Program-made: the position numbers and the translations under genes
Notes under the pieces: generated by a model
What the model was told of the DNA's origin: nothing
Database searches by the model: none
The model's input: the letters and a program-made list of their open reading frames with translations, nothing else
NCBI GenBank assembly: GCA_026984355.1
Contig: JALSSG010000195.1
Coordinates: 1-38,717 of the forward strand
Source of the DNA: Hydrogenothermaceae bacterium
GTDB taxonomy: Bacteria > Aquificota > Aquificia > Aquificales > Hydrogenothermaceae
Direction: 5' to 3'
Length of the DNA stretch: 38,717 nucleotides
In this document: positions 1 to 25,687 of the stretch, piece by piece
Numbering within the stretch: the stretch's first letter is position 1
How the letters are laid out: each line of letters begins with the position of its first letter

Positions 1-2877
1 CCAGTTTCCACCAAATTTTAGATGGCCCCAACCATCAGACATTTCAAGAAGGTTTAGTAAATCTCCAACAACTTCATTATGACATTTATTATTTTTAAAG
101 AATAAAGGCTCCCATCCATGCTCTATGATTATTGCATCCTTTGGTGCAGAAGGATAAAGTTTTGCCATAGCATAGAACTCACCTAAAGCATTAAATACTC
201 TTACTTCATCTCCATCTTTTATTCCTTTTTTCTTAGCTATCTCTGGATTTATCATCACATATGGTTTTCCTCTCTGGAGTCTTAGTAGTATCTTTGAAGT
301 TTTATATGTTGAGTGAATTGACCATCTTGCGTGAGGTGACATTAGAACAAACGGATATCTTTTTGGTCTTATAGGTTCTTTTGCTGTTGGCAATGCTGCA
401 CCAAATTCTATCCATAAATCATGGTCTACATAATAAGTGAGTCTTCCTGATAAAGTTTCAAATCTTTCAAATAAGAAAAGATTATTCTCAAATGAATTAT
501 ATGGTTTATCTGGATAAAGAGGTGATGATTTACCAGCTTTATCATTTAACATTAAGAAACCACCTCTTTTTCTCATAGATTCAATAGTATTTGGTTTAAA
601 CTGGTCTACATTTTCAAGGGCAAATTCTACTGCATCTTTATCACTTCTTACCTTACCACCTATAGTATATTCTTCAACAAGCTTATCTAGTTCTCTGTAC
701 CCTGTTTTACTGTGAGTTGGGTCAGGGATTTTTATAAATCTTTCTGGATTAGAATCTCCCCTTTTCTTAGCTTCTTCATAGTGCTTTAATGCTATTTCTT
801 GAAGCTTTTCTACTATAAGAGTACAGATTTCCCATTCTGATTTAGCCTCGCCTACAGGTTTCAAGTTGGCAGGTGGCTGAGCTAAGTTAGCATATCTATG
901 ATAACCAGGGTTTGTTCTTAAATCCCAAACTTCATAATGAGATTTCGCTGGTAATACTATATCTGCATATTGAGCTGTTGAGTTCATTCTAAAGTCAACA
1001 TATGCAAAGAATTTAGCTTTCTTTAGGAAAGCTTCTCTATAAGTACTTCCTTTATTCCTTCTAAATCTTGAATCAGCAAATATAAGGAAAGTTTCTACTG
1101 TATCCCAGTATGGTTTTCCATCTTTTTTATGTAGATTATCTTTCCATTTTTCATCTGTTCCAAAGTTAGCAAGCGTCTCTTTTACTCTTTTTATATATTC
1201 ATCTTTTGATAACCCTGTTGCTCTTTTTACATCTTCATCTTCATAAAGTTTTTCAGCATCTTTTAACATATTACCTAACACAAATTCACTTACAAAACCT
1301 GAAGCAAATCTAAATTGATACTTGCCTGCAAAACCAGAAAGTTTACCCATTCCAGATATAGCCCATTCATTTTCTGTGTTTAATCCACCATAAGGTCCTA
1401 ACTTTCCAACAAGTCCTGGTATAGATGCAACTGCTCTATGAGAGAGTAAACCGTTAAAGTATTTACCAAGTGTAAATCCTACATTTATCTCAACAACTTT
1501 ATTTAAAGCTATATCTTTTGCTAATTGTTCTACAATTGTTGGATGAACACCTGTTAATTTCCATGTTTTTTCTGCAGAGAACTTTTTAGCTTCTTCCTTT
1601 AGAAGTTCAAATACTGTTGTAACCTTTACTTTAGAGCCATCTTTTAGTGTTACCTCCCATGTACCTTCTAAAGCTGGATCTATATCCCATCCTACATCTT
1701 TTAACCTTAAGGTTGGAACCGGGCATCCTTCAGTTCCTGGCATTAGTGTTAATTTATTTGTTTTTGTATTCCAACAGAAGAAACATGCTTCTGGTTCAAA
1801 TTCTTTACCTTCTGCTTTTTCTTCAAAAGTTTTATAAATTTCTTCATCAAATTCAGCTGGAGGATTTTCTATATCTATATCTGACATCCTAAGTAACTTT
1901 TTGTTATCAAGTCTTACTAAGAAAGGTAAATCTGTAAATACTTTTACAAAACCTTCCTTATAAAGTTTTTTCTGAATTATCTCATTAATAACAGCCATTG
2001 CAAGAAATGCATCATATCCAGCCTTTACCGGAACCCATAAATCTGCATGTATCGCTGTAGCATTAAAATCTGGTGTAATAACTATAACTTTCGAACCGTT
2101 ATATTTTCCTTCCCAAACAAAATGAGCATCAGGTATTCTTGTTTTATTTGGGTCCATACCCCAATAAACCTGTACATCTGTAACATATTGAAAATCCCAT
2201 GAACAACCTATATTACCTTCGCCATAAACTATAGAAACACCCTGAAACATATCACCAACATAAGATGCTATATATGGTCTTACAGCACCAAGAAGTGTTC
2301 CAAGTCTCTTACCTGAAGCTGCTCTTGCTTCTGTAAGCATTCCAGAACCTACATGTATATATAAACCTTCCGGTCCCTTCTCTAACATTGTTTTATATAT
2401 GTTTTCTGCTATCTCTGTTATCGCTTCATCCCACGTTATTCTTTTCCACTGTCCAGAGCCTCTTTCACCTACTCTTTTCAAAGGATATAAAAGCCTATCT
2501 TTTTCATACATTATTTGAGAGTGCTGTACTCCTTTATTACATCCTCTTGGGTTAAAGTCAGGGATTTTTGGATTTATAGGTGTGTAGTTTGCTACCTGAT
2601 TTTCTCTTGTAACGATACCATTATCTACCCAGACATCCCATGCACAGTTACCCTGACAGTTTACACAGTGATACGCTGTACCGTGTTCTTCTTTTTTACC
2701 ATAAGTATAGGCAAACTCTTTTCTATACATATTTTCTGTATATGAGGTATTTGGATAAGAAGCTCTTGGATCTTCTACCCAAACTGCATCCTTTGCAAAT
2801 GCAGCATTTCCTCCTAAGGTTAACCCAGCTCCCGTTGCGCTAAGGGCTTTTAAGAAGTCCCTTCTTGAAAGAGCCAT
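1..2877 (-). CDS. Tat-exported molybdopterin (bis-MGD) oxidoreductase catalytic subunit, type II DMSO-reductase family (Nar/Ser/Clr/Ddh/Ebd-like); C-terminus runs off the window
   Basis: Uninterrupted minus-strand frame from ATG at 2877 to base 1 (959 codons). It is absent from the ORF track because it is open at the edge. N-terminus MALSRRDFLKALSATGAGLTLGGNAAFA/KD is a twin-arginine signal. HCVNCQGNC (H-x3-C-x3-C, nt 2644-2670) followed by NPRGCNKG resembles the NarG-type FS0 4Fe-4S motif. GGAGG lies about 8 nt upstream of the ATG. Confidence 0.85.
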   Translation of the reverse strand, partial: MALSRRDFLKALSATGAGLTLGGNAAFAKDAVWVEDPRASYPNTSYTENMYRKEFAYTYGKKEEHGTAYHCVNCQGNCAWDVWVDNGIVTRENQVANYTPINPKIPDFNPRGCNKGVQHSQIMYEKDRLLYPLKRVGERGSGQWKRITWDEAITEIAENIYKTMLEKGPEGLYIHVGSGMLTEARAASGKRLGTLLGAVRPYIASYVGDMFQGVSIVYGEGNIGCSWDFQYVTDVQVYWGMDPNKTRIPDAHFVWEGKYNGSKVIVITPDFNATAIHADLWVPVKAGYDAFLAMAVINEIIQKKLYKEGFVKVFTDLPFLVRLDNKKLLRMSDIDIENPPAEFDEEIYKTFEEKAEGKEFEPEACFFCWNTKTNKLTLMPGTEGCPVPTLRLKDVGWDIDPALEGTWEVTLKDGSKVKVTTVFELLKEEAKKFSAEKTWKLTGVHPTIVEQLAKDIALNKVVEINVGFTLGKYFNGLLSHRAVASIPGLVGKLGPYGGLNTENEWAISGMGKLSGFAGKYQFRFASGFVSEFVLGNMLKDAEKLYEDEDVKRATGLSKDEYIKRVKETLANFGTDEKWKDNLHKKDGKPYWDTVETFLIFADSRFRRNKGSTYREAFLKKAKFFAYVDFRMNSTAQYADIVLPAKSHYEVWDLRTNPGYHRYANLAQPPANLKPVGEAKSEWEICTLIVEKLQEIALKHYEEAKKRGDSNPERFIKIPDPTHSKTGYRELDKLVEEYTIGGKVRSDKDAVEFALENVDQFKPNTIESMRKRGGFLMLNDKAGKSSPLYPDKPYNSFENNLFLFERFETLSGRLTYYVDHDLWIEFGAALPTAKEPIRPKRYPFVLMSPHARWSIHSTYKTSKILLRLQRGKPYVMINPEIAKKKGIKDGDEVRVFNALGEFYAMAKLYPSAPKDAIIIEHGWEPLFFKNNKCHNEVVGDLLNLLEMSDGWGHLKFGGNW

Positions 2878-2913: not shown

Positions 2914-2940
2914 ATAAAAAATGGTGGGTTGCCCCACCAC
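2914..2940 (-). terminator. Intrinsic-terminator-like hairpin (7-bp G/C-rich stem, GCAA loop, U-run) between the Cys-tailed rhodanese-like gene and the molybdoenzyme gene
   Basis: Plus strand shows tGGTGGG-ttgc-CCCACCa at 2922-2939, preceded by aaaaaa at 2916-2921. The minus-strand RNA therefore reads stem, GCAA, stem, UUUUUU. Confidence 0.6.
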
Positions 2941-2947
2941 TAAGTTA

Positions 2948-3442
2948 TTATAAACAACCTCCACCACCACCCATTTTTGGTGGCTCATATTCACCATCTT
3001 CTGTTGGTAGACCAGCTTCATCCCATGCTACAACTCCACCTGCAAGGTTTTGAGCTATTTTGAATTTTTGAGCACATTTTTTGAATATCTCTGGGTCTCC
3101 ATCTCTTGATACTATTATTGTTGGGATATATGGATTAATTTGCTCAACCGCTTCTTCAGGAGCTTTTGATTCATCACAATCAGGAAGAGGAATAGCTCCA
3201 GGTAAATGAATGTCTGTATAGTATAGATACTCATCATCGTAATCTTCATCTTCTGGTTCATAAGGTCTAACATCTATTATCTGGATATTCACATTAGGAT
3301 TAGCAAGCTTTTTATATAGTTCTTGAGCTGTAACTGGTATTTGCTTTTGTAATTCTACTTCTTTCTTCCCAAAACTAACAAGTAAACCAGCAAGAACTAC
3401 AATCAAACCTATATATATTGCTCTTTCAATTTTTGGGTTCAT
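2948..3442 (-). CDS. Membrane-anchored rhodanese-homology-domain protein lacking the active-site Cys, with C-terminal GGGGGCL tail
   Basis: 164-aa ORF with an N-terminal TM (IYIGLIVVLAGLLVSF). Rhodanese-like pattern: IIDVRP...HLPGAIPLP...PTIIVSRDGDPE...LAGGVVAWDEAGLP. The loop position normally holding Cys is Ser. The protein ends ...EPPKMGGGGGCL. Confidence 0.75.
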   Translation of the reverse strand: MNPKIERAIYIGLIVVLAGLLVSFGKKEVELQKQIPVTAQELYKKLANPNVNIQIIDVRPYEPEDEDYDDEYLYYTDIHLPGAIPLPDCDESKAPEEAVEQINPYIPTIIVSRDGDPEIFKKCAQKFKIAQNLAGGVVAWDEAGLPTEDGEYEPPKMGGGGGCL

Positions 3443-3585
3443 TATTCTTCACCTCCTTCTTGGAGTTGTACCTGTGCTGATTGGGCTTTCTTTTCTAGGT
3501 CTGAAATTTGAGATTTTAACCCAATCAAACCAACAATAAGAACCACTATTGCTAACCAGTACAGTACTCTTTCTATCATGCTCAT
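3442..3585 (-). CDS. 47-aa single-pass membrane microprotein (not in ORF track)
   Basis: ATG at 3585. Translation: MSMIERVLYWLAIVVLIVGLIGLKSQISDLEKKAQSAQVQLQEGGEE. Its TAA stop (3442-3444) overlaps the ATG (3440-3442) of the downstream gene as TAATG. Its TM segment resembles the N-terminus of that downstream protein. Confidence 0.55.
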   Translation of the reverse strand: MSMIERVLYWLAIVVLIVGLIGLKSQISDLEKKAQSAQVQLQEGGEE

Positions 3586-3610: not shown

Positions 3611-4741
3611 TTAATCGTATACTTCATCAGCCAATTGTTTAGCCTGAATGAATTTCATCCATCTTCCAAAGTATATTAAATTTGCTGTAAGTATTCCTAC
3701 AATAAAGAATGTTCCAGACTGAGCTATAGAACCTACTGATAAAGTAGGATATGCTGCCAGGAAAGACCCAGTAGTACACCCACCACCAATCATAGCTCCA
3801 AGGGCAAGGAAAAATCCACCAAAGAACACAAGTATAAGTCTAACCCATGGTATTGGTGTAACCGCTACAGCAAATGGCGGTGGAACTACATCAAACTTAA
3901 ATGTTTTTGATAATATAGCACTGATAAATGCTCCTGGTATTAATCCAAGTATCAACCCTGCATGCCATATAACAGTCTCATTTATAGTTGGAACTACTTG
4001 TAGCGGATGACCTAACATATGAGCAATCCATCCTACAAGTGCAAGTGCTGCTCCTGAAAATCCAAGATATTCACCCTGCACAGTAGCCCACGTTATTATA
4101 AGTCCTGCAAGTATTCCTGAAGGTAGCCAGTGCCATTCACCTCTTAACATATCTAAAAGAGAGCGAGGTTCCTGTTCTTTATAATACTTTTTAGCAGGGT
4201 CTAACCAATCAGCTATTATTGCAAATATTATGAATGCTATTCCCCATACTACTGCAACAACTCCATAAGGAAGGCCTAAAAGGCCATATAAAGTTATTTT
4301 CTCTTTCTTTGCCAGTATTCCAGCTTCTACGAGTGTAGGTTGAAGCTCATTATAAGCCAAAATTCCAGCAACAAGACCTATAACTCCTGCAATAGCTAAA
4401 AACTTACCAGCACCAACTCTGGCGACACATGTACCAGGACAAAAACCAGCTGATGCCATAGCTATACCAAATAAAAATCCACCTATAAGATGTGCTATCC
4501 CCATATATGGCATCACTCTTGGATATATATGAGTCATTTCAGCTATGCCTAAGATATCTACAAGACCATAGAGTATAGAAGACGTAGCTACACCTATAAA
4601 TGCAAATTTCATTATTTTAAGGTCTCTAAGCAGGAGCATTCCTTCCACTCTTGAATATCTTATAGCTCCTACTTTGTGTAAAACAGCACCAAATAGAGCA
4701 CCTGTTATTAAACCCATTATCAATGCATGTAGGTGCTCCAT
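3611..4741 (-). CDS. yeeE: YeeE/YedE-family sulfur (thiosulfate) transporter, copy A
   Basis: Polytopic membrane protein with the conserved Cys motifs GFCPGTC and GGGCTTG of the sulphur-transport family. I prefer the ATG at 4741 (MEHLHAL), which is preceded by AGGAGGTGA. The track's GTG start at 4750 lies inside that RBS. Confidence 0.85.
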   Translation of the reverse strand: MEHLHALIMGLITGALFGAVLHKVGAIRYSRVEGMLLLRDLKIMKFAFIGVATSSILYGLVDILGIAEMTHIYPRVMPYMGIAHLIGGFLFGIAMASAGFCPGTCVARVGAGKFLAIAGVIGLVAGILAYNELQPTLVEAGILAKKEKITLYGLLGLPYGVVAVVWGIAFIIFAIIADWLDPAKKYYKEQEPRSLLDMLRGEWHWLPSGILAGLIITWATVQGEYLGFSGAALALVGWIAHMLGHPLQVVPTINETVIWHAGLILGLIPGAFISAILSKTFKFDVVPPPFAVAVTPIPWVRLILVFFGGFFLALGAMIGGGCTTGSFLAAYPTLSVGSIAQSGTFFIVGILTANLIYFGRWMKFIQAKQLADEVYD

Positions 4742-4762
4742 TATAATCACCTCCTTGAAAGG

Positions 4763-5890
4763 TTAGTCATAAACTTCATCTGCTGCTTTTTTGGCCTGTA
4801 CAAATCTACTCCATCTACCAAAGTATATAAGGTTTGCAGTTAAAACCCCTATTACAAAGTAGGTGGCAGACATAGCCATAGGACCAACTGATAAAGTAGG
4901 ATATGCTGATAAAAATGCTCCGGTAGTACACCCACCACCAATCATAGCTCCAAGGGCAAGGAAAAGTCCACCAAAGAACACAAGTATAAGTCTAACCCAT
5001 GGTACTGGTGTAACCGCTACAGCAAATGGTGGTGGAACTGCATCAAACTTAAATGTTTTTGATAATATAGCACTGATAAATGCTCCTGGAAGCACTCCTA
5101 ATATTAAACCAGCATGCCACATAATTGTTTCATTTATATTTGGAACTATTTGCAGTGGATGACCTATTACATGAGCAACCCATCCTACAAGTGCAAGTGC
5201 TGCTCCTGAAAATCCAAGGTACTCACCTTGCATAGTAGCCCACGTTATTATAAGTCCTGCAAGTATCCCTGAAGGTAGCCAGTGCCATTCACCTCTTAAC
5301 ATATCTAAAAAGTTTCTATTTTCTTTTTGCTCATACTTTTTAGCAGGGTCAAACCAGTCAGCTATTATTGCAAATATTATGAATGCTATTCCCCATACTA
5401 CTGCAAGAACTCCATAAGGTATTCCTAAAAGACCATATAAAGTTATTTTTTCTTTTTGACCTAAAATACCTGCTTCTACTAAAGAAGGCTGAATAATGCT
5501 GTATATAACTATACCTAGTATAAGACCTATAACTCCTGCTGTTGCAAACCATTTACCAGCACCAACTCTGGCAACACATGTACCAGGGCAAAAACCAGCT
5601 GATGCCATAGCTATACCAAACAAAAATCCACCTATAAGGTGTGCTATCCCCATATATGGCATTACTCTTGGATGAATATTTAGTGCATCTGCATAGCCTA
5701 AGAGGTGAACAAGGCCGTAGATTATAGAAGTTGTTGCTATACCAGTGAATGCAAATTTCATTATTTTAAGGTCTCTAAGTAAGAGCATCCCTTCTACTCT
5801 TGAATATCTTATGGCTCCTACTTTATGTAAAACTATTCCAAATAAAGCTCCTGTTATTAAACCCATTATCAGTGCGTGTGTATGTTCCAT
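4763..5890 (-). CDS. yeeE: YeeE/YedE-family sulfur (thiosulfate) transporter, copy B
   Basis: 375-aa paralog of copy A with the same GFCPGTC and GGGCTTG motifs. A GGAGGT RBS sits at 5898-5903. Confidence 0.88.
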   Translation of the reverse strand: MEHTHALIMGLITGALFGIVLHKVGAIRYSRVEGMLLLRDLKIMKFAFTGIATTSIIYGLVHLLGYADALNIHPRVMPYMGIAHLIGGFLFGIAMASAGFCPGTCVARVGAGKWFATAGVIGLILGIVIYSIIQPSLVEAGILGQKEKITLYGLLGIPYGVLAVVWGIAFIIFAIIADWFDPAKKYEQKENRNFLDMLRGEWHWLPSGILAGLIITWATMQGEYLGFSGAALALVGWVAHVIGHPLQIVPNINETIMWHAGLILGVLPGAFISAILSKTFKFDAVPPPFAVAVTPVPWVRLILVFFGGLFLALGAMIGGGCTTGAFLSAYPTLSVGPMAMSATYFVIGVLTANLIYFGRWSRFVQAKKAADEVYD

Positions 5891-5939: not shown

Positions 5940-6914
5940 TTATTTTTCAATTGGAAGAGATGGATCATTACCCCATTCATCCCAAGAACCAACATATACT
6001 TTAGCTTTATCATGTCCTACAAGCTTTAAAGCAGCAAAAACAAAAGAACCTCTACCTGTACCAACGTGACAGTATGTAATTACTGTTTTGTCTGGAGTAA
6101 CACCAGCTTTTTTGAAGTATCTTTTTAGTTTTTTAAGTGGTTTAAATAGTGGTCTTCCTGGTTTTCCTGAAGGGTTTCCAGCTACTTTCTTCCACTCAAA
6201 GAATACAGCTCCAGGTATATGGCCACCTCTTTTAACCTGTATTTCTTTACCTGGCTCATATTCAGCTTTTAATAAAGCTTTTCCTACATATTCTTGAAAT
6301 CTTCTAGCATCTAATATGATGTAATGTTCTTTATCTTTGGTAGCTTTTAATACTTCTTCTTTTGTAGCAAGTATATCCCATCTTATATTTGCTTTAAATG
6401 TTTTTGGCTGTACTTTTGCATGTCCAGTTTCTAATGGATAACCTTTAGCTTCCCATGTAGCAAGTCCACCATCTAACATTTTTACCTGCCCTTTATCTGC
6501 ATCTAAACCGTAAAGATAGAGAAAATACCATACACCAGATGCATTTGGACCTCTTCCATCATCATAAGCTATAGCTGTCATATCATTACTTATACCAAGT
6601 TCTTCTCCAATAAATTTCTCTGCCCTTTCTTTACACATAGGAAGTCCATTACATTCTTTAATATCTTTTAGATAGTGTAAATCGTGAGCAGACGTTATAG
6701 CTGAACCTGGAATATGTTTTTCACATTTTTTTTCTCCATCACTACATATAAACCTAACATCTGGTTTTCCAACTAAAGCTTTAGCATCATCTACCCATAT
6801 TAAAAATGGAGCTGGTGGAGATTTTCTCTCCTTTTTAGCTGCTTGAGCTTCAAATGGCATTACTAAAGAAGCAGCTGCTATACTTAGAACTGCTGTTGAC
6901 AGTATTTTCCTCAT
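5940..6914 (-). CDS. Secreted two-domain rhodanese (thiosulfate sulfurtransferase family)
   Basis: Active-site loop YCHVGTGRGS is in the C-terminal domain. Signal peptide MRKILSTAVLSIAAASLVMPFEAQA/A. I prefer the ATG at 6914 (M39 of the track ORF) because GGAGGT lies 7 nt upstream and this start yields a canonical signal peptide. Confidence 0.85.
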   Translation of the reverse strand: MRKILSTAVLSIAAASLVMPFEAQAAKKERKSPPAPFLIWVDDAKALVGKPDVRFICSDGEKKCEKHIPGSAITSAHDLHYLKDIKECNGLPMCKERAEKFIGEELGISNDMTAIAYDDGRGPNASGVWYFLYLYGLDADKGQVKMLDGGLATWEAKGYPLETGHAKVQPKTFKANIRWDILATKEEVLKATKDKEHYIILDARRFQEYVGKALLKAEYEPGKEIQVKRGGHIPGAVFFEWKKVAGNPSGKPGRPLFKPLKKLKRYFKKAGVTPDKTVITYCHVGTGRGSFVFAALKLVGHDKAKVYVGSWDEWGNDPSLPIEK

Positions 6915-7043
6915 TGATATACCTCCTGTTTTATTTTGTGGGACTTTTTGATTTTTTTGTAGGGTGGGATATAGGTTTTTTGTGGCAGGCGCCATATGAA
7001 GAAGTTTTTTTCTTTTAAAAATAAACATTTTAAATCCATATGC

Positions 7044-7059
7044 GGATATAAATATATCC
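7044..7059. promoter_or_regulatory. Perfect 7-2-7 inverted repeat GGATATA-AA-TATATCC in the rhodanese leader (candidate operator)
   Basis: Read directly from the sequence. It lies just downstream of the candidate -10 element. The AT-rich context raises the chance of a random match. Confidence 0.3.
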
Positions 7060-7069
7060 TAACTGATAG

Positions 7070-7098
7070 ATAATATACCAATTCAGTTAAGTTAACAA
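7070..7098 (-). promoter_or_regulatory. Candidate sigma70-type promoter for the sulfur cluster (TTGTTA-17-TATTAT)
   Basis: Minus-strand hexamers are at 7098-7093 and 7075-7070 with a 17-nt spacer, about 150 nt upstream of the rhodanese ATG. Confidence 0.3.
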
Positions 7099-7215
7099 GC
7101 CTTAACCTATGTTTATTCTTTCTATAAGAAAGTTTTAATATTCTAATTATCAAATGCATTCCATAATTGTAAAACTAAAAAAATAAAAATTTCAATATGT
7201 CAAAAAGGAATAAGG

Positions 7216-9231
7216 CTAACTTTTAGGTAGTTCTATAATAAAGTGTGCACCATTTGAAGACTTTACAGCTTTGATAGTTCCACTATGTAATTCTATTATT
7301 TCCTTTGCTATAGATAGTCCAAGACCACTACCTTTGGCTTTTTTTGAAAAATAAGGGGAAAAAACTTTTTCTAATTCTTCTTCTGGAATACCTGTACCAT
7401 TATCTGTAATATCAAGTACAACTTTATCATCATATTCATACACCTTTAGTTTTACCCATCGTTCCTTTTGTTTTTCTGTGGCTTCATAACTGTTTTGAAT
7501 TAAATTAGCAAGAGCCTGTCTAAGTAAGGTTCTATCACCTACAATTTTAACATCCTCATTTAAGTCAAGGTAAACCTTAAAATCAGATGTTTCATACCTA
7601 TCTTTTAGTTCTTTTAATAAATCACTTAAATTAAATGGTTCTTTTCTTAATTTATCCTGTATAGAAGCAAACTGGTTAAACTCTCTAACAAGATTGGATA
7701 AATAATCTACTTCTTTAAAAATTATATCTGTAGCTTTTTTTAATATCTCTGGAAAGTTGGGATTTTCTTTTTCATACTGTCTTATTATTCTTTCTGCTGA
7801 TAGTCTTATAGGAGTTAAAGGATTTTTTATTTCGTGTGCTATTCGCTGGGCTATTTCTTTCCATGCTAATATTTTTTCAGCATTAACAATATTTGTAATA
7901 TCGTCTATAACTAAAACATAACCTTTTTTTGTATTTTCTATTTTTGTTAATTTCATAAGGAGTATTTTTCCATTATATTTTACTTTTGCACCTTTCTTTA
8001 ATTCATCTAAGCTAAAACCAAGTTCTTTTATAAAATCTACTATATCTTTATTAATAACTTTACTTTTATCTATACCTAATATTTTAATTGCAGCACTATT
8101 TATTTTTTGAATTTTTCCTTCTTCATCTGAGAAGATTACACCTGTTTTGGCAGTTTCAAGTATCGTTTCTAAATATTGATTACTATAAGCTAGCTCTTTG
8201 TTTTTTATTTCTAACTGTTTATAAAGATTTTGTAATTGACTTACCATATGGTTAAATTCATCTATTAAGATTCCTATTTCGTCTTTAGATGATATATTCA
8301 CTCTTACGTTTAAATTACCTTTAGCAAGTTTTTTTGATGCTTCTGCAAGCTGTTCCAAAGGATACGTAAGATTTCTAACTATATAATGGCTAAACCATAT
8401 AGCTGCTAATATTATGAACATTGTGATTATTAACATTGTAAGGATATAACCAATTCTGATTGGATTTTTATAGTATCTAAATTGAGAGTATAGTTTTAGT
8501 ATTGATTTAACCTGCTTATTTTTCTTGGATAGAAAATCTGGTAGTTTTTTGTCTATTATTACAATATTCTGGTTTTTTTTCTTTAAGTATCTAAGGTAAG
8601 CTCTGTCATCTTTATAAAAGATTAGATACTTTTTCTCTAAAAGCCTTTTATAATCTATTGAAGCTATTTTTTGACCGTATATAGCTTTTTTTCCATTTTC
8701 TATAATAACAATAGAGTTTAAGTCAAAGTAAGTTAATAATTTGTCTGGTTGTATCTTTTCATTTAGAATAAGTTCTGCTATTGAATCTGCTATTTTGACG
8801 TACTCTTTTTTATTTTTTTCTAATATTTCATCTATTGTTTTTAAAGCTTCTTCAACTTTACCACTAAACCATATATTTGTAGCATTTGATATCAAACTTA
8901 TAGAAGCTATTGATATTATCATCGAAGGAATTATAACTAATGAAAGCAGTATAACAGTTAGTTTTTTCCTTAATTTTCCCCGAGATTTTCTTTCTTCAAA
9001 AAAAAGTTTGATAAAATATCTTAACGCTAAGGCAAGAATTGTAAGAAAAAATACTACATTTATATTAAGTATAATCAAAAATGCATAAGGATTATATATA
9101 CCTTCTTCTACCTTTGATAACTTGCCATATATATATACATTTCCAACAATAAATACGAACAAAACTATTAAGGCTATAAGTATATTTCTCTTTTTTTTAT
9201 GCCTTTTATTAGCCTGGTTTTCCAAAACCAT
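7216..9231 (-). CDS. NtrY-like membrane sensor histidine kinase (TM-HAMP-PAS-HisKA-HATPase)
   Basis: N-terminal TM segments. H-box IAHEIKNPLTPIRLSAE, N-box NLIQNSYEA, G-boxes DNGTGIP and GSGLGLSIA. Confidence 0.85.
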   Translation of the reverse strand: MVLENQANKRHKKKRNILIALIVLFVFIVGNVYIYGKLSKVEEGIYNPYAFLIILNINVVFFLTILALALRYFIKLFFEERKSRGKLRKKLTVILLSLVIIPSMIISIASISLISNATNIWFSGKVEEALKTIDEILEKNKKEYVKIADSIAELILNEKIQPDKLLTYFDLNSIVIIENGKKAIYGQKIASIDYKRLLEKKYLIFYKDDRAYLRYLKKKNQNIVIIDKKLPDFLSKKNKQVKSILKLYSQFRYYKNPIRIGYILTMLIITMFIILAAIWFSHYIVRNLTYPLEQLAEASKKLAKGNLNVRVNISSKDEIGILIDEFNHMVSQLQNLYKQLEIKNKELAYSNQYLETILETAKTGVIFSDEEGKIQKINSAAIKILGIDKSKVINKDIVDFIKELGFSLDELKKGAKVKYNGKILLMKLTKIENTKKGYVLVIDDITNIVNAEKILAWKEIAQRIAHEIKNPLTPIRLSAERIIRQYEKENPNFPEILKKATDIIFKEVDYLSNLVREFNQFASIQDKLRKEPFNLSDLLKELKDRYETSDFKVYLDLNEDVKIVGDRTLLRQALANLIQNSYEATEKQKERWVKLKVYEYDDKVVLDITDNGTGIPEEELEKVFSPYFSKKAKGSGLGLSIAKEIIELHSGTIKAVKSSNGAHFIIELPKS

Positions 9232-9236
9232 AAACC

Positions 9237-9998
9237 TTAAAGTTCTAATTCTCTAGGTGGTACACCTATATACTCTGCTTCTTTTTCTTCATCTAATCTT
9301 TTTGAAAATGGCTTTTCTAATGTATATTCCTCATAGGTATGAGCCACAAGTCCGGGTATTCTACCTACTATCCATAAACCTTCCCCTATTTTCCAGTCAA
9401 AGCCAAGCTCTGATGCTACAGCAGCTACAGCTCCATCTACATTTAAAATTAATTTTTTGCCTTTTTTCTTTTCTATTTCTTTTTCTATCTTTAATGCAAA
9501 ATCACAGTATTTTCCATAAAAACCAAGGTTTTTAGCAATGGAAAAAAGCTTTTGTGTTCTTGGGTCTCCTTCTTTATAGTATCTGTGTCCATATCCAGGT
9601 ATTCTCTTTTTTTCATTAAAAAATTTCTCTACCACTTCTTCAGGTTTTTTATCTATGTTTTCCTGTAAAAGTTTCATTGCATCTTCTAATGCTCCTCCAT
9701 GAACCTTGCCAAACGCAAGTACACCAGCACCAACTCCTACGTGTATAGGATTACCTCCACTTATAACAGCTCTTGCAGCAATTACAGAAGGTGGTGCTAT
9801 AGAATGCTCAATCATTGTTATAAGTATTGCATCCATCATTTTTGTTTTTCTTTCATCAGGTAGATTTCCAGTAAGGACAAGATATATAGCCTGAGAAAAT
9901 GTAAGGTTGCCTATAAGGTCTTTTAATTTGTAGCCTCTTACATATGCTTCTTTATCAAAATGCCAGCTTATAGCTGTTTTCCATTTTTTCTTCTCCAT
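9237..9998 (-). CDS. Short citrate-synthase-family protein, citryl-CoA-lyase-like
   Basis: 253 aa carrying the citrate synthase catalytic motifs VHGGALE, PGYGHRYYKEGDPR and NVDGA. The size matches the stand-alone CCL type. Confidence 0.7.
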   Translation of the reverse strand: MEKKKWKTAISWHFDKEAYVRGYKLKDLIGNLTFSQAIYLVLTGNLPDERKTKMMDAILITMIEHSIAPPSVIAARAVISGGNPIHVGVGAGVLAFGKVHGGALEDAMKLLQENIDKKPEEVVEKFFNEKKRIPGYGHRYYKEGDPRTQKLFSIAKNLGFYGKYCDFALKIEKEIEKKKGKKLILNVDGAVAAVASELGFDWKIGEGLWIVGRIPGLVAHTYEEYTLEKPFSKRLDEEKEAEYIGVPPRELEL

Positions 9999-10005
9999 AT
10001 CAACC

Positions 10006-12102
10006 TCACATAAATAATTTTCCTACGTTATATATGATAAAGGCTATAGACCATGCAAGAACGAAACTGTATCCAAGAAATAAAAGTGCATATTTTTTTC
10101 CAATCTCTTGTATCATAACAGCAACAGTAGCTACACATGATGTGTATATAAGAAGTAGTATCATATAAGACAATGCTGACAATGGGGTAAAATGTGCTTT
10201 AACTACATTCCTTAATGTTTCAAACTCTTCATTTGCCACTTCAAAAGCTTTTATCTTTATAGAAAAAACAGAAAAGGTAGCATCTTTTATTGATATAAAT
10301 AGTTTTTTTGTTTGATTTATAATCTCTTCTTTAAAATTGAAATTTTCTGATTTTATTTCTTCTTTTACTTCTGCATAATACATAGTACCAAGGGCACTTA
10401 AAGCTATTTCTCTTGCTAAAAAAGCAGGGATTAAAGAAGCAGTTGCTCTCCAATCATCAATACCTATTGGTTCAAAAACAGGAACTAATACCTGTCCTAT
10501 CTTTGCTGCATAACTTTGAGATTGGTCTTTTATATTAGGAGGAAGATTTAAAAGACCCCATACAATTATAGATATTGCAAATATGACTGTTCCAGCTCTA
10601 TATATAAATCCTTTAGTGTGTATCCACGTAACAGACAAAAGAGCTTTTAGTGTTGGTATTCTATATGGTGGTAATTCTAAAGCAAAGTGAGTTAGTTTTC
10701 CCTTGAAGGTAGTTTTTTTAAGGAAAAAGGCTGTAATAAGACCAACTATGATACCAAGCAAGTAAAGAGCCATTATAATTATTACAGGATTATCAAAGAA
10801 AACTGATGCAAAAAAAGCAAAAACTATCAGTCTTGCAGGACATGTCATAAAAGGTATCATCATAATAACTATAAATTTATCTCTTTTATCCTCTATAACT
10901 CTTGTTGCCATTATAGCTGGAACATTACATCCAAATCCAAGCATGAGGGGTATAACCATACTTCCATGAAGACCAAGCTTTTCCATAAATCTATCCATTA
11001 AAACAGCTATTCTTGGAAGATATCCAGACATTTCAAGAAAGGTCATTAAAAAAAACAATACAGCTATTAAAGGGACAAAAGTAAGTACAAATCCAACTCC
11101 ACCTATAACAGCTTCGGTGAAAAAGTTTATAATCAAATCTGAAGCATTTAATGTTTTTAAAATATTAACCAAAATCGGGGATAAAAACTCTACAAGAAAA
11201 CCATCTAACCAGTCCATTAATGGAGATGAAAAATCAAATGCTACTTTAAATAATAAAAACATAATAAAAACGTATATTCCAATGCCTATATATGGGTGAA
11301 GTAAAAATGTATCTAATAACTCTGTAATATCATACTTTTGTTCCTTTTCCTTTTTTACTACCTCCTTTGTAACACCATGGGCAAAACCAAATCTTTCGTC
11401 TTTTATAATATCCTCTAAACTCTCACCGTAAAATCGCTCAAGTTCTCTTCTTAATTCTTCTATTTTATTATTTAAATCTCTATCTTTTACACCATACAGT
11501 AAGATTTTTATAGCTTCATGTTTTGTAAGTTTCTTATTTAATAGTTTAGATAGTCTTGATATTATTTCTTCTATTTTCTGTTCGTACTTTATAGAAGGTA
11601 TCTGTTGCTTTTCATATACTTGTATAATTGCATCTAAAACCTTATCTACTCCTTCACCTTTTCTGGCTATTGTTTTTACAGCTTTTATATTTAGTATTTC
11701 TTCAAGAAATGGAATATTAATACTTATTCCTTTTCTTTGTGCTTCATCATATATGTTTAAAACTATAACTGTAGGTTTTTCAAATTCAAGTAGCTGGGTA
11801 GTTAGAAAAAAATTCTTTTCAAAATTTTGAGTATCTATTACATCTAAAATAACATCTATCTTTTCATTTTCTAAAAAATTTATAGCGACTTCTTCTGCTT
11901 CTGAAAGTGGTTCTAATGTATAAATACCTGGTAAATCTACTATGTGAATTAAATAATCTTTATACTTTATCGTAGCTTCCTTTTTTTCTACTGTAACTCC
12001 CGGCCAATTTCCTACTTTTAAATCTGTACCTGCAAGTAGATTTAAAAGAGTTGTCTTACCTACATTAGGATTTCCAATAAGAGCTACTGTTATCTCTTTC
12101 AT
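10006..12102 (-). CDS. feoB: Ferrous iron transporter FeoB
   Basis: N-terminal G-domain (GNPNVGKTTLLN, DLPG) followed by a polytopic permease domain. Confidence 0.92.
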   Translation of the reverse strand: MKEITVALIGNPNVGKTTLLNLLAGTDLKVGNWPGVTVEKKEATIKYKDYLIHIVDLPGIYTLEPLSEAEEVAINFLENEKIDVILDVIDTQNFEKNFFLTTQLLEFEKPTVIVLNIYDEAQRKGISINIPFLEEILNIKAVKTIARKGEGVDKVLDAIIQVYEKQQIPSIKYEQKIEEIISRLSKLLNKKLTKHEAIKILLYGVKDRDLNNKIEELRRELERFYGESLEDIIKDERFGFAHGVTKEVVKKEKEQKYDITELLDTFLLHPYIGIGIYVFIMFLLFKVAFDFSSPLMDWLDGFLVEFLSPILVNILKTLNASDLIINFFTEAVIGGVGFVLTFVPLIAVLFFLMTFLEMSGYLPRIAVLMDRFMEKLGLHGSMVIPLMLGFGCNVPAIMATRVIEDKRDKFIVIMMIPFMTCPARLIVFAFFASVFFDNPVIIIMALYLLGIIVGLITAFFLKKTTFKGKLTHFALELPPYRIPTLKALLSVTWIHTKGFIYRAGTVIFAISIIVWGLLNLPPNIKDQSQSYAAKIGQVLVPVFEPIGIDDWRATASLIPAFLAREIALSALGTMYYAEVKEEIKSENFNFKEEIINQTKKLFISIKDATFSVFSIKIKAFEVANEEFETLRNVVKAHFTPLSALSYMILLLIYTSCVATVAVMIQEIGKKYALLFLGYSFVLAWSIAFIIYNVGKLFM

Positions 12103-14256: not shown

Positions 14257-15231
14257 TTAAATAGTTAGCTTTTTTGTAAGTTCAAAAATTTCTAAATCTG
14301 GCTTTTTTATTTTTCCAAAGGATATATCCAAAGGCTTTGTTTTTATCTGCCCCTTTTCATATGAAACCATAAAGTTTTTTTCACCTTTTAAATATTTTTC
14401 TATAGCAAAAGCTCCAAATCTTGAAGCTATTATTCTGTCAAAAGCTGTTGGAGAACCACCTCTCTGGATATGACCAAGAACAGAGTATCTTATACCTCCT
14501 ATTGAATAGTTTTTTAGTTTTTCTTCTAAAATTGGTACAAGGTCTTGAGCTTTTGCTACTCCTTCTGCCAGTATAATAATAGAAAATGTTTTTCCTTTTT
14601 TATAAGAATCTATAAGTTTTTCTATTACCAAATGTAGAGGAAAAGGATATTCAGGAATAAGCGTAATATCTGCACCTGTAGCTATACCAACATCAAGAGC
14701 TATAAAACCACTGTCCCTTCCCATTACTTCAACAACAAATATTCTTTCATGAGATATTGTTGTATCTCTTATCTTATCAACTGCTTCAACAGCATTATTA
14801 ACAGCAGTATCAAATCCTATAGTATAATCTGTCCCATATAAATCATTATCTATAGTTTTAGGAATACCTATCACGTTTATAGGAAATTCTTTAGCAAAGA
14901 TATTTGCAGCAGTAAAAGAACCATTTCCACCAATAACGATTAATGTATCAGTACCTAAATCTTTTAGATTTTCATAAGCCTTTTTCCTATATTCAGGAAT
15001 TTTGAATCTTGGTTCTCGAGAGGAATGTAGAATTGTTCCACCTTTATTGATTATTCCACCTACAGACCGAGGATTTAAAAGACAATAATCCTTTTCTATT
15101 AGTCCTTTATACCCTCTTTTTATACCTATAACAGAAATATTATGAAAATAGGCTGTCCTAACGACAGCCCTTATGCAAGCATTTAACCCCGGAGCATCTC
15201 CACCACTGGTTAAAACAGCTATTTTTTTCAT
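14257..15231 (-). CDS. pfkA: ATP-dependent 6-phosphofructokinase
   Basis: Motifs GGDAPGLNA, IGGNGS, PKTIDND, MGRDSG. Confidence 0.92.
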   Translation of the reverse strand: MKKIAVLTSGGDAPGLNACIRAVVRTAYFHNISVIGIKRGYKGLIEKDYCLLNPRSVGGIINKGGTILHSSREPRFKIPEYRKKAYENLKDLGTDTLIVIGGNGSFTAANIFAKEFPINVIGIPKTIDNDLYGTDYTIGFDTAVNNAVEAVDKIRDTTISHERIFVVEVMGRDSGFIALDVGIATGADITLIPEYPFPLHLVIEKLIDSYKKGKTFSIIILAEGVAKAQDLVPILEEKLKNYSIGGIRYSVLGHIQRGGSPTAFDRIIASRFGAFAIEKYLKGEKNFMVSYEKGQIKTKPLDISFGKIKKPDLEIFELTKKLTI

Positions 15232-15515
15232 TCTTCATGCATATAACAGTGAGCCTTTGTTACAGCAAACTCTGGATATATATCACCTGTTTTTTTATCA
15301 ACAAAAATATTTCTTACTGTAACACCTATATCTTCATAACCTTCAAGGTATAGCTCACCTATATAGTATTTATCATTTTCACAAACGTGTATTTTTGATA
15401 CATAGTTAGAACCAGAAGCGTACTCTTTTATAAGTTTTTCTGCCTCTGATTTTGATATAGCAAAGCTAGAAGTTGAAATAGAAACAGCTAGCATAAATGC
15501 AAGTAATTTTTTCAT
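15228..15515 (-). CDS. Small secreted protein of unknown function
   Basis: Signal peptide MKKLLAFMLAVSISTSSFA. Two Cys, and a C-terminus reading AHCYMHEE. ATGA overlap with pfkA. Confidence 0.6.
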   Translation of the reverse strand: MKKLLAFMLAVSISTSSFAISKSEAEKLIKEYASGSNYVSKIHVCENDKYYIGELYLEGYEDIGVTVRNIFVDKKTGDIYPEFAVTKAHCYMHEE

Positions 15516-15541
15516 AGAAAAAAACCTCCTAAATTTTATTA

Positions 15542-15937
15542 TTATTTCGCAAGTTCCTGTACTATATCTTTTATAATTTTATCTACCTCATTTGCTATAT
15601 CTGATATGCTTTCTCCGAAAACCTGTGACATAGAAGAAGGTTCCATAGTTGAAATTACTGTTTTACCACCTTTTGTATATATAGCCACTCTACACGGCAG
15701 AAAACAAGCAACCTTACTTTCCTTTGTAAGTGCCTGCTTTGCATAAGATGGATTACATATTTCAAAAATGTAAACTTCTTCTTCTATTGGATGTCCTTTT
15801 TCTTCTAAAAGCTTATGAACATTATATGAGTGTAAAGTACCAAACCCTTTTTCCTTAGCTTTTTCTTCAAAAATATTAACAATTTCTTCAGGTTTTTTTG
15901 TTGTTTCTATTTCGTAAATCATCTTGCTCACCTCCAT
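15542..15937 (-). CDS. DUF302-domain protein
   Basis: GFGTLHSYNVHKLL...FLPCRVAIYTKGGKTVIS matches the DUF302 pattern. An alternative start at 15922 (MIYEI) has GGAGGTGA upstream. Confidence 0.7.
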   Translation of the reverse strand: MEVSKMIYEIETTKKPEEIVNIFEEKAKEKGFGTLHSYNVHKLLEEKGHPIEEEVYIFEICNPSYAKQALTKESKVACFLPCRVAIYTKGGKTVISTMEPSSMSQVFGESISDIANEVDKIIKDIVQELAK

Positions 15938-16017
15938 ATCAACACCTTATTAACTAGATAATATTCTATATTATAATAACTTTTATTTAATCATTTTTTT
16001 GTTTTTCAGGAGGAATC

Positions 16018-16173
16018 ATGGAAACTGAAAGCACATGGTTTGAGCTTGCAGGAATTATATTCTTTACATTCATGGTAGTAACTGTAGGTCTTTTATGGGC
16101 TTTATCCATTAAAGCAAGTTATAACGAAGAAAAGAAAAAACAAAACGAAAAATCTTTGCAGGAGAAAAAATGA
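16018..16173 (+). CDS. 51-aa single-pass membrane microprotein (not in ORF track)
   Basis: An AGGAGGA RBS lies 4 nt upstream. Translation: METESTWFELAGIIFFTFMVVTVGLLWALSIKASYNEEKKKQNEKSLQEKK. Its TGA overlaps the next ATG as ATGA (16170-16173). Confidence 0.5.
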   Translation: METESTWFELAGIIFFTFMVVTVGLLWALSIKASYNEEKKKQNEKSLQEKK

Positions 16174-16658
16174 GGAAAAATCTTCCATTTTTCATTATTA
16201 CAGGTTTAGGTATAGTAGCTACTCTTTTTTTAGTTTACTTTTTTGTATATAACATGGCTGTTGAAACTGTAAGATCTGCTGTCTTTATAGAAAGAGCGTA
16301 TCCAAATATCAAACCTGAAGAGTATGTAAACGAACTAAAATCCTCAGCTAAAAAAAATAATCTTACACTATTAGATATTAAACAAAACAATCAGTATTAT
16401 CTTCTTCAAATGTACGATGAAAATATAATAAATAAACTTTCCCAAATTTCACCAAATCTTGTTTCAATAGGAGTTATAAATCTTGTTGTTTACTCAGTTG
16501 GAAGTGGAACTGGTATCGTTGCTAACAATCCATATTTATGGGATATAGCCATACCTAGTGATTATGTAGATGACCTTTCCGAAAATTTTTCTAACCAACT
16601 AATTGATATATTTGATGGTATTTACTGGCAGATAAAAGAAAAGAAAAAAGAGTTATAA
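16170..16658 (+). CDS. Membrane-anchored hypothetical protein, possibly DUF302-like
   Basis: N-terminal TM. The stretch LVSIGVINLVVYSVGSGTGIVANNP loosely resembles the DUF302 core. Confidence 0.55.
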   Translation: MRKNLPFFIITGLGIVATLFLVYFFVYNMAVETVRSAVFIERAYPNIKPEEYVNELKSSAKKNNLTLLDIKQNNQYYLLQMYDENIINKLSQISPNLVSIGVINLVVYSVGSGTGIVANNPYLWDIAIPSDYVDDLSENFSNQLIDIFDGIYWQIKEKKKEL

Positions 16659-16670
16659 AGGGGGAAAACT

Positions 16671-24538: not shown

Positions 24539-25297
24539 TTGAATTACATAACTACCATAATTACAGCTTTAATTTTTCTGTATTTTTATAACACGTATGC
24601 TAAAGATAGTATCATTCTTGCAGTTTCTGCTAATGCTCAATATGTGATTGATGAAATTATAAAAGCTTATAAACAAAAACATACAGATGTTTCTATAAAA
24701 AAAATAGTTTCTTCTTCTGGAAAACTTACAAATCAAATCACAAAAGGGGCACCATTTGATATATTTTTGTCTGCTGACATGAACTATCCTATCTTCCTTT
24801 ACAAAAAAGGTCTAACAATAACAAAGCCAAAAACATATGCTTATGGACTTATTGTGTTATGGACTACAAAAAATTTTTCTAAAAAAGACCTGAATATAAA
24901 TATCATTTACAAAGTAAACAAAATAGCAATCCCAAATCCCAAAACAGCTCCCTATGGAAGAGAAAGCATAAAAATTTTAAAAAATTTAAAAGTTTTTAAA
25001 AAGATAAAAAACAGAATAATCTATGGAGAAAGTGTATCTCAGGTAAACTACTATATATTAAAAGGTTTTGTTGATATAGGTTTTACATCAAAATCATCTG
25101 TATTAGCACCTGTAGTAAAAAGTAAAGGTATATGGGTAGAAGTAGACAAAAATCTGTATAATCCGATAAAGCAAGGAGCAGTATTACTGAAAAATGCAAA
25201 GAATAAAAAGCAGGCTTACGAATTTTTTAGATTTCTTTTTTCAAAAAAAGCAAAAGAAATATTCAAAAAATATGGATACCTGGTAAAAGATGAATAA
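24539..25297 (+). CDS. modA: Molybdate ABC transporter substrate-binding protein ModA
   Basis: TTG start, signal peptide, SSSGKL and DIFLSAD motifs, sits in the mod operon. Confidence 0.85.
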   Translation: MNYITTIITALIFLYFYNTYAKDSIILAVSANAQYVIDEIIKAYKQKHTDVSIKKIVSSSGKLTNQITKGAPFDIFLSADMNYPIFLYKKGLTITKPKTYAYGLIVLWTTKNFSKKDLNINIIYKVNKIAIPNPKTAPYGRESIKILKNLKVFKKIKNRIIYGESVSQVNYYILKGFVDIGFTSKSSVLAPVVKSKGIWVEVDKNLYNPIKQGAVLLKNAKNKKQAYEFFRFLFSKKAKEIFKKYGYLVKDE

Positions 25298-25685: not shown

Positions 25686-25687
25686 AA

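Follow-up and report, generated by a model that had tools for sequence, protein, structure and literature searches.

A membrane-anchored rhodanese-fold protein with a dead active-site loop and a conserved Gly-Cys-Leu arm in a sulfur-related gene cluster of Hydrogenothermaceae

The window analyzed here is a 38,717-nucleotide stretch of DNA from a Hydrogenothermaceae bacterium (assembly GCA_026984355.1, contig JALSSG010000195.1, positions 1 to 38,717) and encodes a 164-residue protein, R164 (2948..3442, reverse strand), in which an N-terminal transmembrane (TM) anchor is followed by a rhodanese domain lacking the catalytic Cys and by a Gly5-Cys-Leu tail. A conserved module of eight genes contains R164 and one further protein with a G-C-L-COOH arm; its order is a periplasmic tandem rhodanese, a YeeE-family transporter, a TM protein of ~45 amino acids (aa), R164, the alpha, beta, and gamma subunits of a molybdenum (Mo) enzyme of the dimethyl sulfoxide (DMSO) reductase type II family, and the second arm protein, p133. 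The favored reading, to which we assign a probability of roughly 55%, is that R164 is a membrane-tethered carrier built on a dead rhodanese domain, that its working residue is the penultimate Cys or selenocysteine (Sec) of a disordered Gly-rich arm, and that it takes part in a relay formed by the module. It is probably a periplasm-facing arm for sulfane sulfur; we infer both that sulfur is the cargo and the order in which it is handed on.

The R164 open reading frame (ORF) runs from ATG to TAA, and its 164 residues are identical to those quoted in an earlier reading of this DNA made without database searches (the sequence-only reading). Pfam identifies only the generic rhodanese domain, with PF00581 matching residues 38–142 (E=1.6e-7; 32.1 bits against a cut-off of 22.2). 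An AlphaFold2 model computed from 44 homologs has a mean predicted local distance difference test score (pLDDT) of 90.8 and a predicted template modelling score of 0.79, with an alpha/beta rhodanese core following a helix; the domain corresponds to residues 36–150 (2993..3337, reverse strand). Foldseek comparison of the model with PDB returns rhodanese folds only (3nhv, 1urh, 3ilm, 5hbo, 1qxn), and its matches include BH2092, SseA, Alr3790, YgaP, Sud, and the inactive domains of MKP7 and USP8. With a PF00581 score above the gathering score and an alpha/beta fold, R164 belongs to the rhodanese homology superfamily. A search of PDB with the single R164 sequence gave designed helical-repeat proteins as best matches, which were rejected as spurious. 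The TM helix occupies residues 8–25 (3368..3421, reverse strand), which are hydrophobic and lie within a model helix spanning residues 3–34 at pLDDT >90; the hydrophobic core is present in all 42 full-length homologs. The homolog set combines 58 matches from a search of 5.8 billion sequences with 36 from an exhaustive search of representatives, and comprises ~90 clusters. Two homolog alignments show that the acidic insert PYEPEDEDYDDEYL (residues 60–73; 3224..3265, reverse strand) is variable and confined to Aquificota members; in Escherichia coli SseA the N-terminal, non-catalytic domain has a loop at the equivalent place, with which the insert aligns.

The active-site loop of the R164 domain consists of residues S112-R-D-G-D-P-E118 (3089..3109, reverse strand; Ser codon TCA at 3107–3109). 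Profile–profile alignment with hhalign of the R164 family and the catalytic domain of the periplasmic rhodanese encoded in the same cluster places S112 on the Cys of YCHVGxGR, with PTIIV-SRDG paired with KTVITYCHVG. In the AlphaFold2 model S112 is the first residue after the strand at 108–111 and heads a loop of 5–6 residues before the helix at 117–124, a geometry matching that of the rhodanese CX5R loop. The catalytic position is occupied by Ser in 72 homolog clusters, Thr in five, and Cys in none. R164 does not have the Cys that opens the CX5R/S/T loop after the central strand of catalytic rhodaneses, and its fold therefore cannot act as a canonical sulfurtransferase. Ungapped hidden Markov model alignments of R164 to PDB chains are two residues out of register around the loop and were not used. 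Two internal cysteines lie elsewhere: Cys89 (codon 3176..3178, reverse strand) follows the HxPGAIPxP strand, and Cys123 (codon 3074..3076, reverse strand) ends the helix after the loop. Across 44 aligned homologs they are both present or both absent, neither being found without the other in full-length members, and they may form a disulfide or redox pair; both are missing from homolog P0079 and from every Sec-type homolog described below.

The sequence-only reading had proposed a rhodanese fold with an N-terminal TM anchor, a Ser at the catalytic position in an acidic loop, and an acidic insert. The fold, the anchor, the Ser, and the acidity of SRDGDPE, which is evident directly, all hold; the insert is real, but is absent from non-Aquificota homologs. 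That reading had also allowed that an internal Cys (in PDCDES or KKCAQ) might prove to be the catalytic one, making R164 an ordinary rhodanese, a candidate that hhalign and secondary structure together rule out.

The C-terminal arm EYEPPKMGGGGGCL (residues 151–164; 2951..2992, reverse strand; Cys163 codon at 2954–2956) ends GGGGGCL, and pLDDT values below 50 are confined to residues 159–164. A GCL terminus is present in 77 of 90 homolog clusters, mostly after PExxGEYxPPxxGGG. The tail is kept in AT-rich and GC-rich genomes alike and down to ~35% identity, which rules out chance as an explanation for it. Fragments and frameshifted calls make up part of the non-GCL clusters, the others being two extended paralogs and four proteins ending in -G. 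Locus L039 contains two tandem paralogs (9469–9969 and 10001–10522), the second of which extends past the Cys (GGGCGSGGNEVSIVYSW), and homolog P0053 has a similar extension beyond the Cys that ends VVYSW.

The four proteins ending in -G are of particular relevance, as the DNA beyond their annotated stops reads TGA-CT(C/G)-stop in all four loci: GGT TGA CTC TAG in L005 (720–728), GGA TGA CTG TGA in L036 (2234–2242), GGC TGA CTC TAA in L038 (10451–10459), and GGC TGA CTG TAA in L040 (921–929). This G-UGA-Leu-stop is in register with the G-C-L-stop of the other homologs, and a Leu codon plus stop is expected by chance after a stop codon in ~0.4% of genes; its occurrence in all four, at the site of a conserved Cys, is the usual hallmark of Sec. 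A hairpin begins 11–17 nt downstream of the UGA in all four, and selB, counted here as Sec machinery, lies 5 kb from the p133 homolog of L006. An in-frame UGA at a Cys position, a downstream hairpin, and Sec machinery are thus all found for this subgroup, for which Sec insertion is predicted; these homologs probably end G-Sec-Leu and represent an unannotated selenoprotein form. The sequence-only reading, which had drawn attention to the Gly5-Cys-Leu tail, named homologs lacking the tail Cys as evidence that would count against it; the tail is conserved, and the apparently tail-less subgroup, rejected as a counterexample given its TGA-Leu-stop codons, instead adds weight to the idea. The exchange of Cys with Sec is independent evidence that the penultimate residue is the reactive center, the chemically active residue of a flexible arm.

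The second arm protein, p133, is encoded directly after the gamma subunit gene (L002 15742–16143; L043 8254–8706, just beyond the window start; L006 5549–5902). Its product, 115–170 aa long, is made with a cleavable signal peptide, contains a beta-rich core and a pair of conserved cysteines, and matches no Pfam or NCBIfam family. It ends PKPKxGFFKGCL in each locus reaching that far, and FFKGCL is present in 43 of 46 protein clusters. The L006 homolog ends FFKG-TGA-CTG-TGA, corresponding to G-U-L-stop, and is followed by a GGCCCC/GGGGCC hairpin. The p133 model has a confident core and a last ten residues that are not confident; Foldseek gives weak OB-fold-like (oligonucleotide/oligosaccharide-binding) matches only, all with E >0.1, and no family is assigned. 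Two unrelated proteins of one operon, R164 and p133, have a common G-C(U)-L-COOH end, and p133 is certainly exported.

Five loci are of the Sec type (L005, L006, L036, L038, and L040). In three of these the YeeE gene also has an in-frame TGA, located at the first Cys of GFCPGTC (L006 6879–7985; L036 669–1778; L038 8876–9985), and gene callers split it into products of 90 and 264 aa. A conserved hairpin, GCGGCCAGGUUGGCCGC, lies 15 nt downstream of this TGA, and the affected Cys is presumably the equivalent of Cys91 of TsuA. All five Sec-type loci are missing both the small TM ORF and the C89/C123 pair of the R164 homolog. In three of these five, the loci without the pair whose downstream DNA was read, the gene inserted directly after the R164 homolog, between it and alpha, encodes a thioredoxin of TlpA/ResA type (FWATWC) that has a signal peptide (L006 8472–9005; L036 2233–2805; L005 763–969), and this gene is found only where C89 and C123 are absent. 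This suggests that C89/C123 provide in cis a thiol-disulfide function that an exported thioredoxin supplies elsewhere in trans, and it also locates the chemistry in the periplasm. Locus L038 additionally has a TauE/SafE-family (sulfite exporter) gene upstream (6734–7522) and two cupredoxin/COX2-like genes downstream (15200–17478).

The strict pairing of C89 with C123 and the frequent adjacency of the thioredoxin gene where they are absent could also be read as signs that the arm shuttles reducing equivalents, with the tail Cys or Sec forming transient disulfides or selenylsulfides with YeeE, the rhodanese, and p133 and being recycled by C89/C123. A penultimate Sec is typical of redox arms, and in mammalian thioredoxin reductase a G-C-U-G arm works with an internal redox-active dithiol. 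However, the neighboring genes encode sulfur-transfer and transport proteins and not a source of reductant, and L038 has neither the Cys pair nor an adjacent TlpA gene, such that a purely redox arm is rather unlikely. By analogy with DsrC, the redox and carrier roles would be compatible within one arm.

The domain of R164 likely faces the periplasm (N-in, domain-out), a side that we infer chiefly from its partners: p133, the tandem rhodanese, alpha (through a twin-arginine translocation [Tat] signal), and gamma all bear export signals, the exported p133 has the same terminus, and the substitute thioredoxin is exported. The flanks of the TM helix lend mild support to the N-in arrangement, the N-terminal flank always keeping Lys or Arg and the C-terminal flank being uncharged in P0090 and P0063. 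Summed Lys and Arg counts are 70 in the N-terminal flank versus 133 in the 15-residue C-terminal flank, with similar densities and net charges, and the charge analysis as a whole is ambiguous.

A cytoplasmic domain would make R164 a tethered functional analog of YeeD/TsuB, with an arm that takes up or breaks down imported thiosulfate within the inner vestibule of YeeE. This arrangement would suit the KK or RRR found directly after the TM helix in most members and the position of R164 after yeeE, which is that of yeeD in E. coli; the cluster itself contains no TusA/YeeD gene. YeeD is reported to be essential for YeeE-mediated uptake and to depend on a conserved Cys (PMC11073785, as summarized in PMC11582611). 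Against it stand the G-C-L end of p133, a protein with a cleavable signal peptide, and the exported nature of the thioredoxin that appears where C89/C123 are missing, as well as the constant positive N-flank and the AxA-like sites in the uncharged C-flanks of P0090 and P0063. Moreover, L034, from a Bdellovibrionales metagenome-assembled genome (MAG), keeps R164 between the rhodanese and alpha even though YeeE is at the operon end. A cytoplasmic role of this kind is decidedly unlikely.

The gene neighborhood of R164 is clearly sulfur-related, including as it does the periplasmic rhodanese, YeeE, the Mo enzyme, and a second GCL protein. The survey covered 29 loci from a species-level genome collection together with contigs fetched by exact protein. 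Of 41 loci, 40 have YeeE directly upstream of R164, and 37 of 38 have alpha at most 1.3 kb downstream. Carriers within the Hydrogenothermaceae are Persephonella, Sulfurihydrogenibium (including the isolate S. yellowstonense SS-5), and Hydrogenothermus; outside the Aquificota they are MAGs labelled Myxococcales, Bdellovibrionales, and Pseudomonadota. In L034, where YeeE has moved, R164 is accompanied by its small TM partner.

In the window, all of the cluster genes are on the reverse strand. The periplasmic two-domain rhodanese (5940..7028) is recognized by Pfam in two stretches and by an NCBIfam SseA-like match, and has a catalytic Cys (TYCHVGTGRG); its signal peptide, as read from the sequence, begins at internal Met39 (MRKILSTAVLSIAAASLVMPFEAQA). 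Two tandem YeeE/YedE-family paralogs follow, copy b (4763..5890; PF04143, E=4.1e-32) and copy a (3611..4750; PF04143, E=2.8e-31), the latter with GFCPGTC and GGGCTTG motifs. Most loci have one YeeE copy and L008 has three (6398–9834). Neither window copy has a Cys near position 22, the site of the first conserved Cys of TsuA. The next gene (3442..3585) encodes a Cys-free, 47-aa, single-TM protein by translation, the TAA of which overlaps the R164 ATG by one base (TAATG), so that the two are translationally coupled. Its N-terminus (MSMIER followed by the TM segment) resembles that of R164 (MNPKIER followed by the TM segment), and an ORF of like design, 39–52 aa in length, precedes R164 in all Cys-type loci including L034.

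The alpha gene (1..2877; 959 of ~975 aa, cut by the window edge) starts 70 nt after R164. Its translation contains a Tat signal (RRDFLK) and HCVNCQGNC, and an alpha homolog matches TIGR03479 at E=1.8e-241. The best NCBIfam models for alpha, beta, and gamma are TIGR03479, TIGR03478, and TIGR03477, with alpha and gamma scoring below the curated cut-offs, and the solved structures closest to alpha are PcrA (perchlorate reductase; 1e-115), EbdA, NarG, and NxrA. Contigs encoding an identical R164 (L042 and L043) contain the complete alpha (975 aa), beta, gamma, in which an EB_dh haem-b domain is fused to a cytochrome c, and p133. The enzyme has the Tat signal, the FS0 motif HxxxCxxxC, the alpha-beta-gamma composition, and the haem b EB_dh gamma subunit that define the DMSO reductase type II family. 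Directly after p133 in Aquificota loci there is a Psr/Phs/Ttr-like B-C-A operon encoding an iron-sulfur protein, NrfD, and a Mo subunit of ~1080 aa (L002 16268–20492; L043 8881–12865), for which the best, weak matches are PhsA and TtrB.

The composition of the cluster might alternatively be taken to indicate handling of selenium or metalloids, with a SerABC-like selenate reductase and with arms, rhodanese, and a YedE-like channel that capture and move selenite or selenium as selenotrisulfides. The rhodanese does have a weak NCBIfam match to ExtH, of a selenite/tellurite operon, and YeeE one to YedE/FdhT; alpha falls in a clade containing oxyanion reductases, and some Sulfurihydrogenibium species respire selenate. 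The ExtH and YedE/FdhT matches are far below the curated cut-offs, however, and the cluster is present in S. yellowstonense SS-5 and many Persephonella, oxidizers of sulfur, thiosulfate, or H2 that are not known to respire selenate. The gamma-cytochrome c fusion suits a dehydrogenase feeding an oxidase, although it could serve a reductase, and the adjacent Psr/Phs/Ttr-type operon of Aquificota points to sulfur chemistry. A selenium module is very unlikely. That R164 is a mere scaffold or anchor with a chemically idle tail, as are the inactive rhodanese domains of mitogen-activated protein kinase phosphatases and USP8, is barely credible: such domains are commonly interaction modules and Foldseek does match those of MKP7, DUSP16, and USP8, but the last three residues of R164 are kept in 77 of 90 clusters to ~35% identity, the tail Cys is replaced by Sec only, and the unrelated p133 has an identical terminus.

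In the favored reading, the tethered carrier would act as follows. The Cys of the periplasmic rhodanese would pick up sulfane sulfur from thiosulfate, polysulfide, or S0, with release of sulfite, and the sulfur would go on to the Cys/Sec arms as a persulfide or selenopersulfide. The tethered R164 arm would offer the sulfur for import to the YeeE channel, which is lined with Cys/Sec, or else hand it to the Mo enzyme. That enzyme would oxidize the oxyanion product and pass electrons to cytochrome c. In the alternative hand-off, the arm would enter the funnel of the Mo enzyme for S-oxygenation, a substitute for SoxCD. Such oxygenation would be chemically in-family, since dimethyl sulfide dehydrogenase, a type II enzyme, oxygenates a sulfur atom. 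The Sox system of a Sulfurihydrogenibium-like Aquificae bacterium is without soxCD (PMC4912159). A more ambitious version, possible though the odds are against it, is that R164 and p133 are the substrate-carrying arms of an unrecognized periplasmic sulfur-oxidation system, in which the type II enzyme oxygenates arm-bound sulfane sulfur, the arm threads into YeeE, or both.

Several observations weigh against the carrier relay. The assignment of Sec rests on codon pattern, homology, and hairpins, and the folding energies of most hairpins after the UGA have unremarkable z-scores that are not significant by themselves. The nearest relatives of the Mo enzyme act on perchlorate, ethylbenzene, nitrate, and nitrite, and weak matches to selenium-related NCBIfam models occur within the cluster. 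In L040 an Amt gene takes the place of alpha downstream, so the link with the Mo enzyme has exceptions. Between the R164 stop and the alpha start of the window lies a hairpin and T-run resembling a terminator (2920..2941, reverse strand; 9-bp stem with 5 GC pairs); it is a pattern match found by consensus scan, and could split or attenuate transcription between the rhodanese-YeeE-R164 and Mo enzyme genes. The basic residues following the TM helix, noted above, fit a cytoplasmic domain.

The sequence-only reading had described R164 as a dead rhodanese scaffold converted into a membrane-tethered sulfur carrier. This is partly supported: the dead loop, the reactive arm Cys, and the sulfur-related neighborhood agree with it, and the arm could carry sulfane sulfur rather than selenium or reducing equivalents. 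The Mo enzyme, p133, and the Sec forms were partners outside the view of that reading. Its further proposal that the Cys has moved from the loop to the arm is not supported as worded; the domain seems closer to the N-terminal domain of tandem rhodaneses, which naturally lacks the Cys. Segment GGVVAWDEAGLPTEDGEY corresponds in alignments to the last part of that domain and the start of the interdomain linker. R164 thus has the look of an N-terminal domain in which a Cys-tipped linker has taken the place of the catalytic partner domain, and not of a catalytic domain deprived of its Cys. Non-catalytic N-terminal domains (SseA, 1urh; Pseudomonas aeruginosa, 1yt8) are the best match of R164 in both sequence and fold, and have in common with it an IIDxR...HIPGA region with an insert at the same place and the motif GGxxxWxxxGLPxExG, which in tandem rhodaneses marks the domain end and linker start. 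R164 differs from tandem rhodaneses in having a TM anchor and no catalytic C-terminal domain, its 'linker' stopping after ~14 residues in G5-C-L. In a comparison of R164 with the N-terminal domain of the cluster's own rhodanese only the last 25 residues align, and the case for an origin from that protein is weak.

Among other rhodanese-fold proteins, Sud, the periplasmic polysulfide-sulfur transferase of Wolinella succinogenes (1qxn), is matched by Foldseek and by a weak profile match, is extracytoplasmic, as R164 probably is, and is likewise associated by gene location with an enzyme containing the Mo-bis(pyranopterin guanine dinucleotide) cofactor, and is thought to feed bound sulfur to it. 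Sud is, however, a soluble dimer with a canonical loop Cys and no Cys tail, where R164 has Ser. YgaP of E. coli (Foldseek matches 5hbo, 5hbl, and 2mrm) also combines a rhodanese domain with a membrane anchor, but its loop Cys is retained, its TM helices are C-terminal, and its domain is cytoplasmic.

In function the nearest analogs are Sud and three groups of other folds, SoxY, DsrC/TusE, and YeeD. SoxY (GGCGG-COOH) and DsrC/TusE (G-C-V or K-C-I-COOH) hold sulfur on C-terminal arms that enter the active sites of partners. Like R164, if the side proposed for it is correct, SoxY is a periplasmic carrier with its reactive Cys on a Gly-rich C-terminal arm and works alongside a Mo enzyme (SoxCD). 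It differs in having a beta-sandwich fold and a GGCGG end, compared with the rhodanese fold, penultimate Cys (GGGCL), and TM anchor of R164, and SoxCD is of the sulfite-oxidase family whereas the R164 partner is a DMSO reductase type II enzyme. No Pfam or NCBIfam match to SoxY or SoxZ is found for R164, p133, or their neighbors, and R164 is not a SoxY by these measures. In DsrC/TusE, too, the penultimate residue of a flexible C-terminal arm is Cys and the last is aliphatic, but these proteins are cytoplasmic and of another fold, and in DsrC a further Cys lies 10 residues before it; R164 gives no Pfam or NCBIfam match to them and has no Cys within 40 residues upstream of C163. YeeD/TsuB is a small Cys-bearing protein encoded beside yeeE and needed for YeeE function, but is soluble and cytoplasmic with a TusA fold and an N-terminal CPxP Cys, while R164, with its rhodanese fold and TM anchor, has no TusA-family match. 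The G-C-U-G arm of thioredoxin reductase has its Sec close to a flexible C-terminus, in a fold and system unrelated to those of R164. The UXX-star and SaoC families similarly have Sec or Cys one to three residues from the flexible C-terminus (PMC13188914), and are also unrelated in fold and system. NCBIfam models of near-C-terminal selenoprotein families do not match R164, its Sec-type homologs, or p133.

A related proposal has been made for Hyphomicrobium denitrificans SoxT, a YeeE-like protein, in which sulfur would pass from the SoxY arm Cys along channel cysteines (PMC11582611). That proposal includes help from a periplasmic thiol-disulfide oxidoreductase and leaves unexplained a 56-aa single-TM protein in the module (PMC11582611). 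A 2026 review of prokaryotic selenoproteins includes five forms of rhodanese whose catalytic loop contains Sec, one form of YeeE with another motif ('GUxSG'), and near-C-terminal Sec families, but nothing resembling R164 (PMC13188914). NCBIfam release 20.0 has no model covering R164, its Sec forms, or p133, and a full-text literature search found no description of the R164 family or its cluster, in line with the earlier reading, which was aware of no description of the architecture. The 'YTD' and 'Moly' clusters of sulfur disproportionation are different systems. A reactive Cys on a C-terminal arm is a known idea; no earlier description seems to exist of the architecture, of the pairing of two arm proteins, of their Cys/Sec exchanges, or of the link with YeeE and a type II Mo enzyme.

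Two genes lie immediately upstream of the cluster in the window (7216–9998, reverse strand) and likewise in L039 (3945–6760): one encodes a histidine kinase of 671 aa with HAMP and PAS domains, the other a 253-aa product whose match to citrate synthase is limited to the C-terminal part of that enzyme. No response regulator gene was seen beside the two. About 20 kb from the Mo enzyme cluster, a forward-strand group in the window (24539–27240) encodes a ModA-like binding protein, a TOBE-domain protein, an ATP-binding cassette (ABC) permease, and a 289-aa ORF product, and resembles a molybdate-type ABC transporter.

The R164 cluster bears on three old questions of microbial sulfur oxidation: on how extracytoplasmic sulfane sulfur gets across the membrane, on the actual cargo of YeeE-family channels, and on the replacement of SoxCD in organisms without it. 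A single operon unites a periplasmic rhodanese, two Cys/Sec-arm proteins, a Cys/Sec-lined YeeE, and a cytochrome-fused Mo enzyme related to perchlorate and nitrate reductases. The architecture thus added joins a reactive terminal arm to an inactive rhodanese scaffold, and the Sec-type members are probably new selenoprotein forms that gene callers now truncate or split. The natural Cys-to-Sec substitutions indicate residues worth mutating, and the relay is directly testable, the cluster being present in the cultured thermophiles Sulfurihydrogenibium and Persephonella. If the more ambitious version given above is correct, there would be up to three new selenoprotein forms per Sec-type operon (YeeE, R164, and p133). 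Threading of the arm into YeeE would mean that persulfide sulfur is passed along channel Cys/Sec residues across the membrane, and oxygenation of arm-bound sulfur would constitute a counterpart of SoxYZ/SoxCD, based on the Mo-bis(pyranopterin guanine dinucleotide) cofactor, in the Aquificota, whose Sox systems lack SoxCD.

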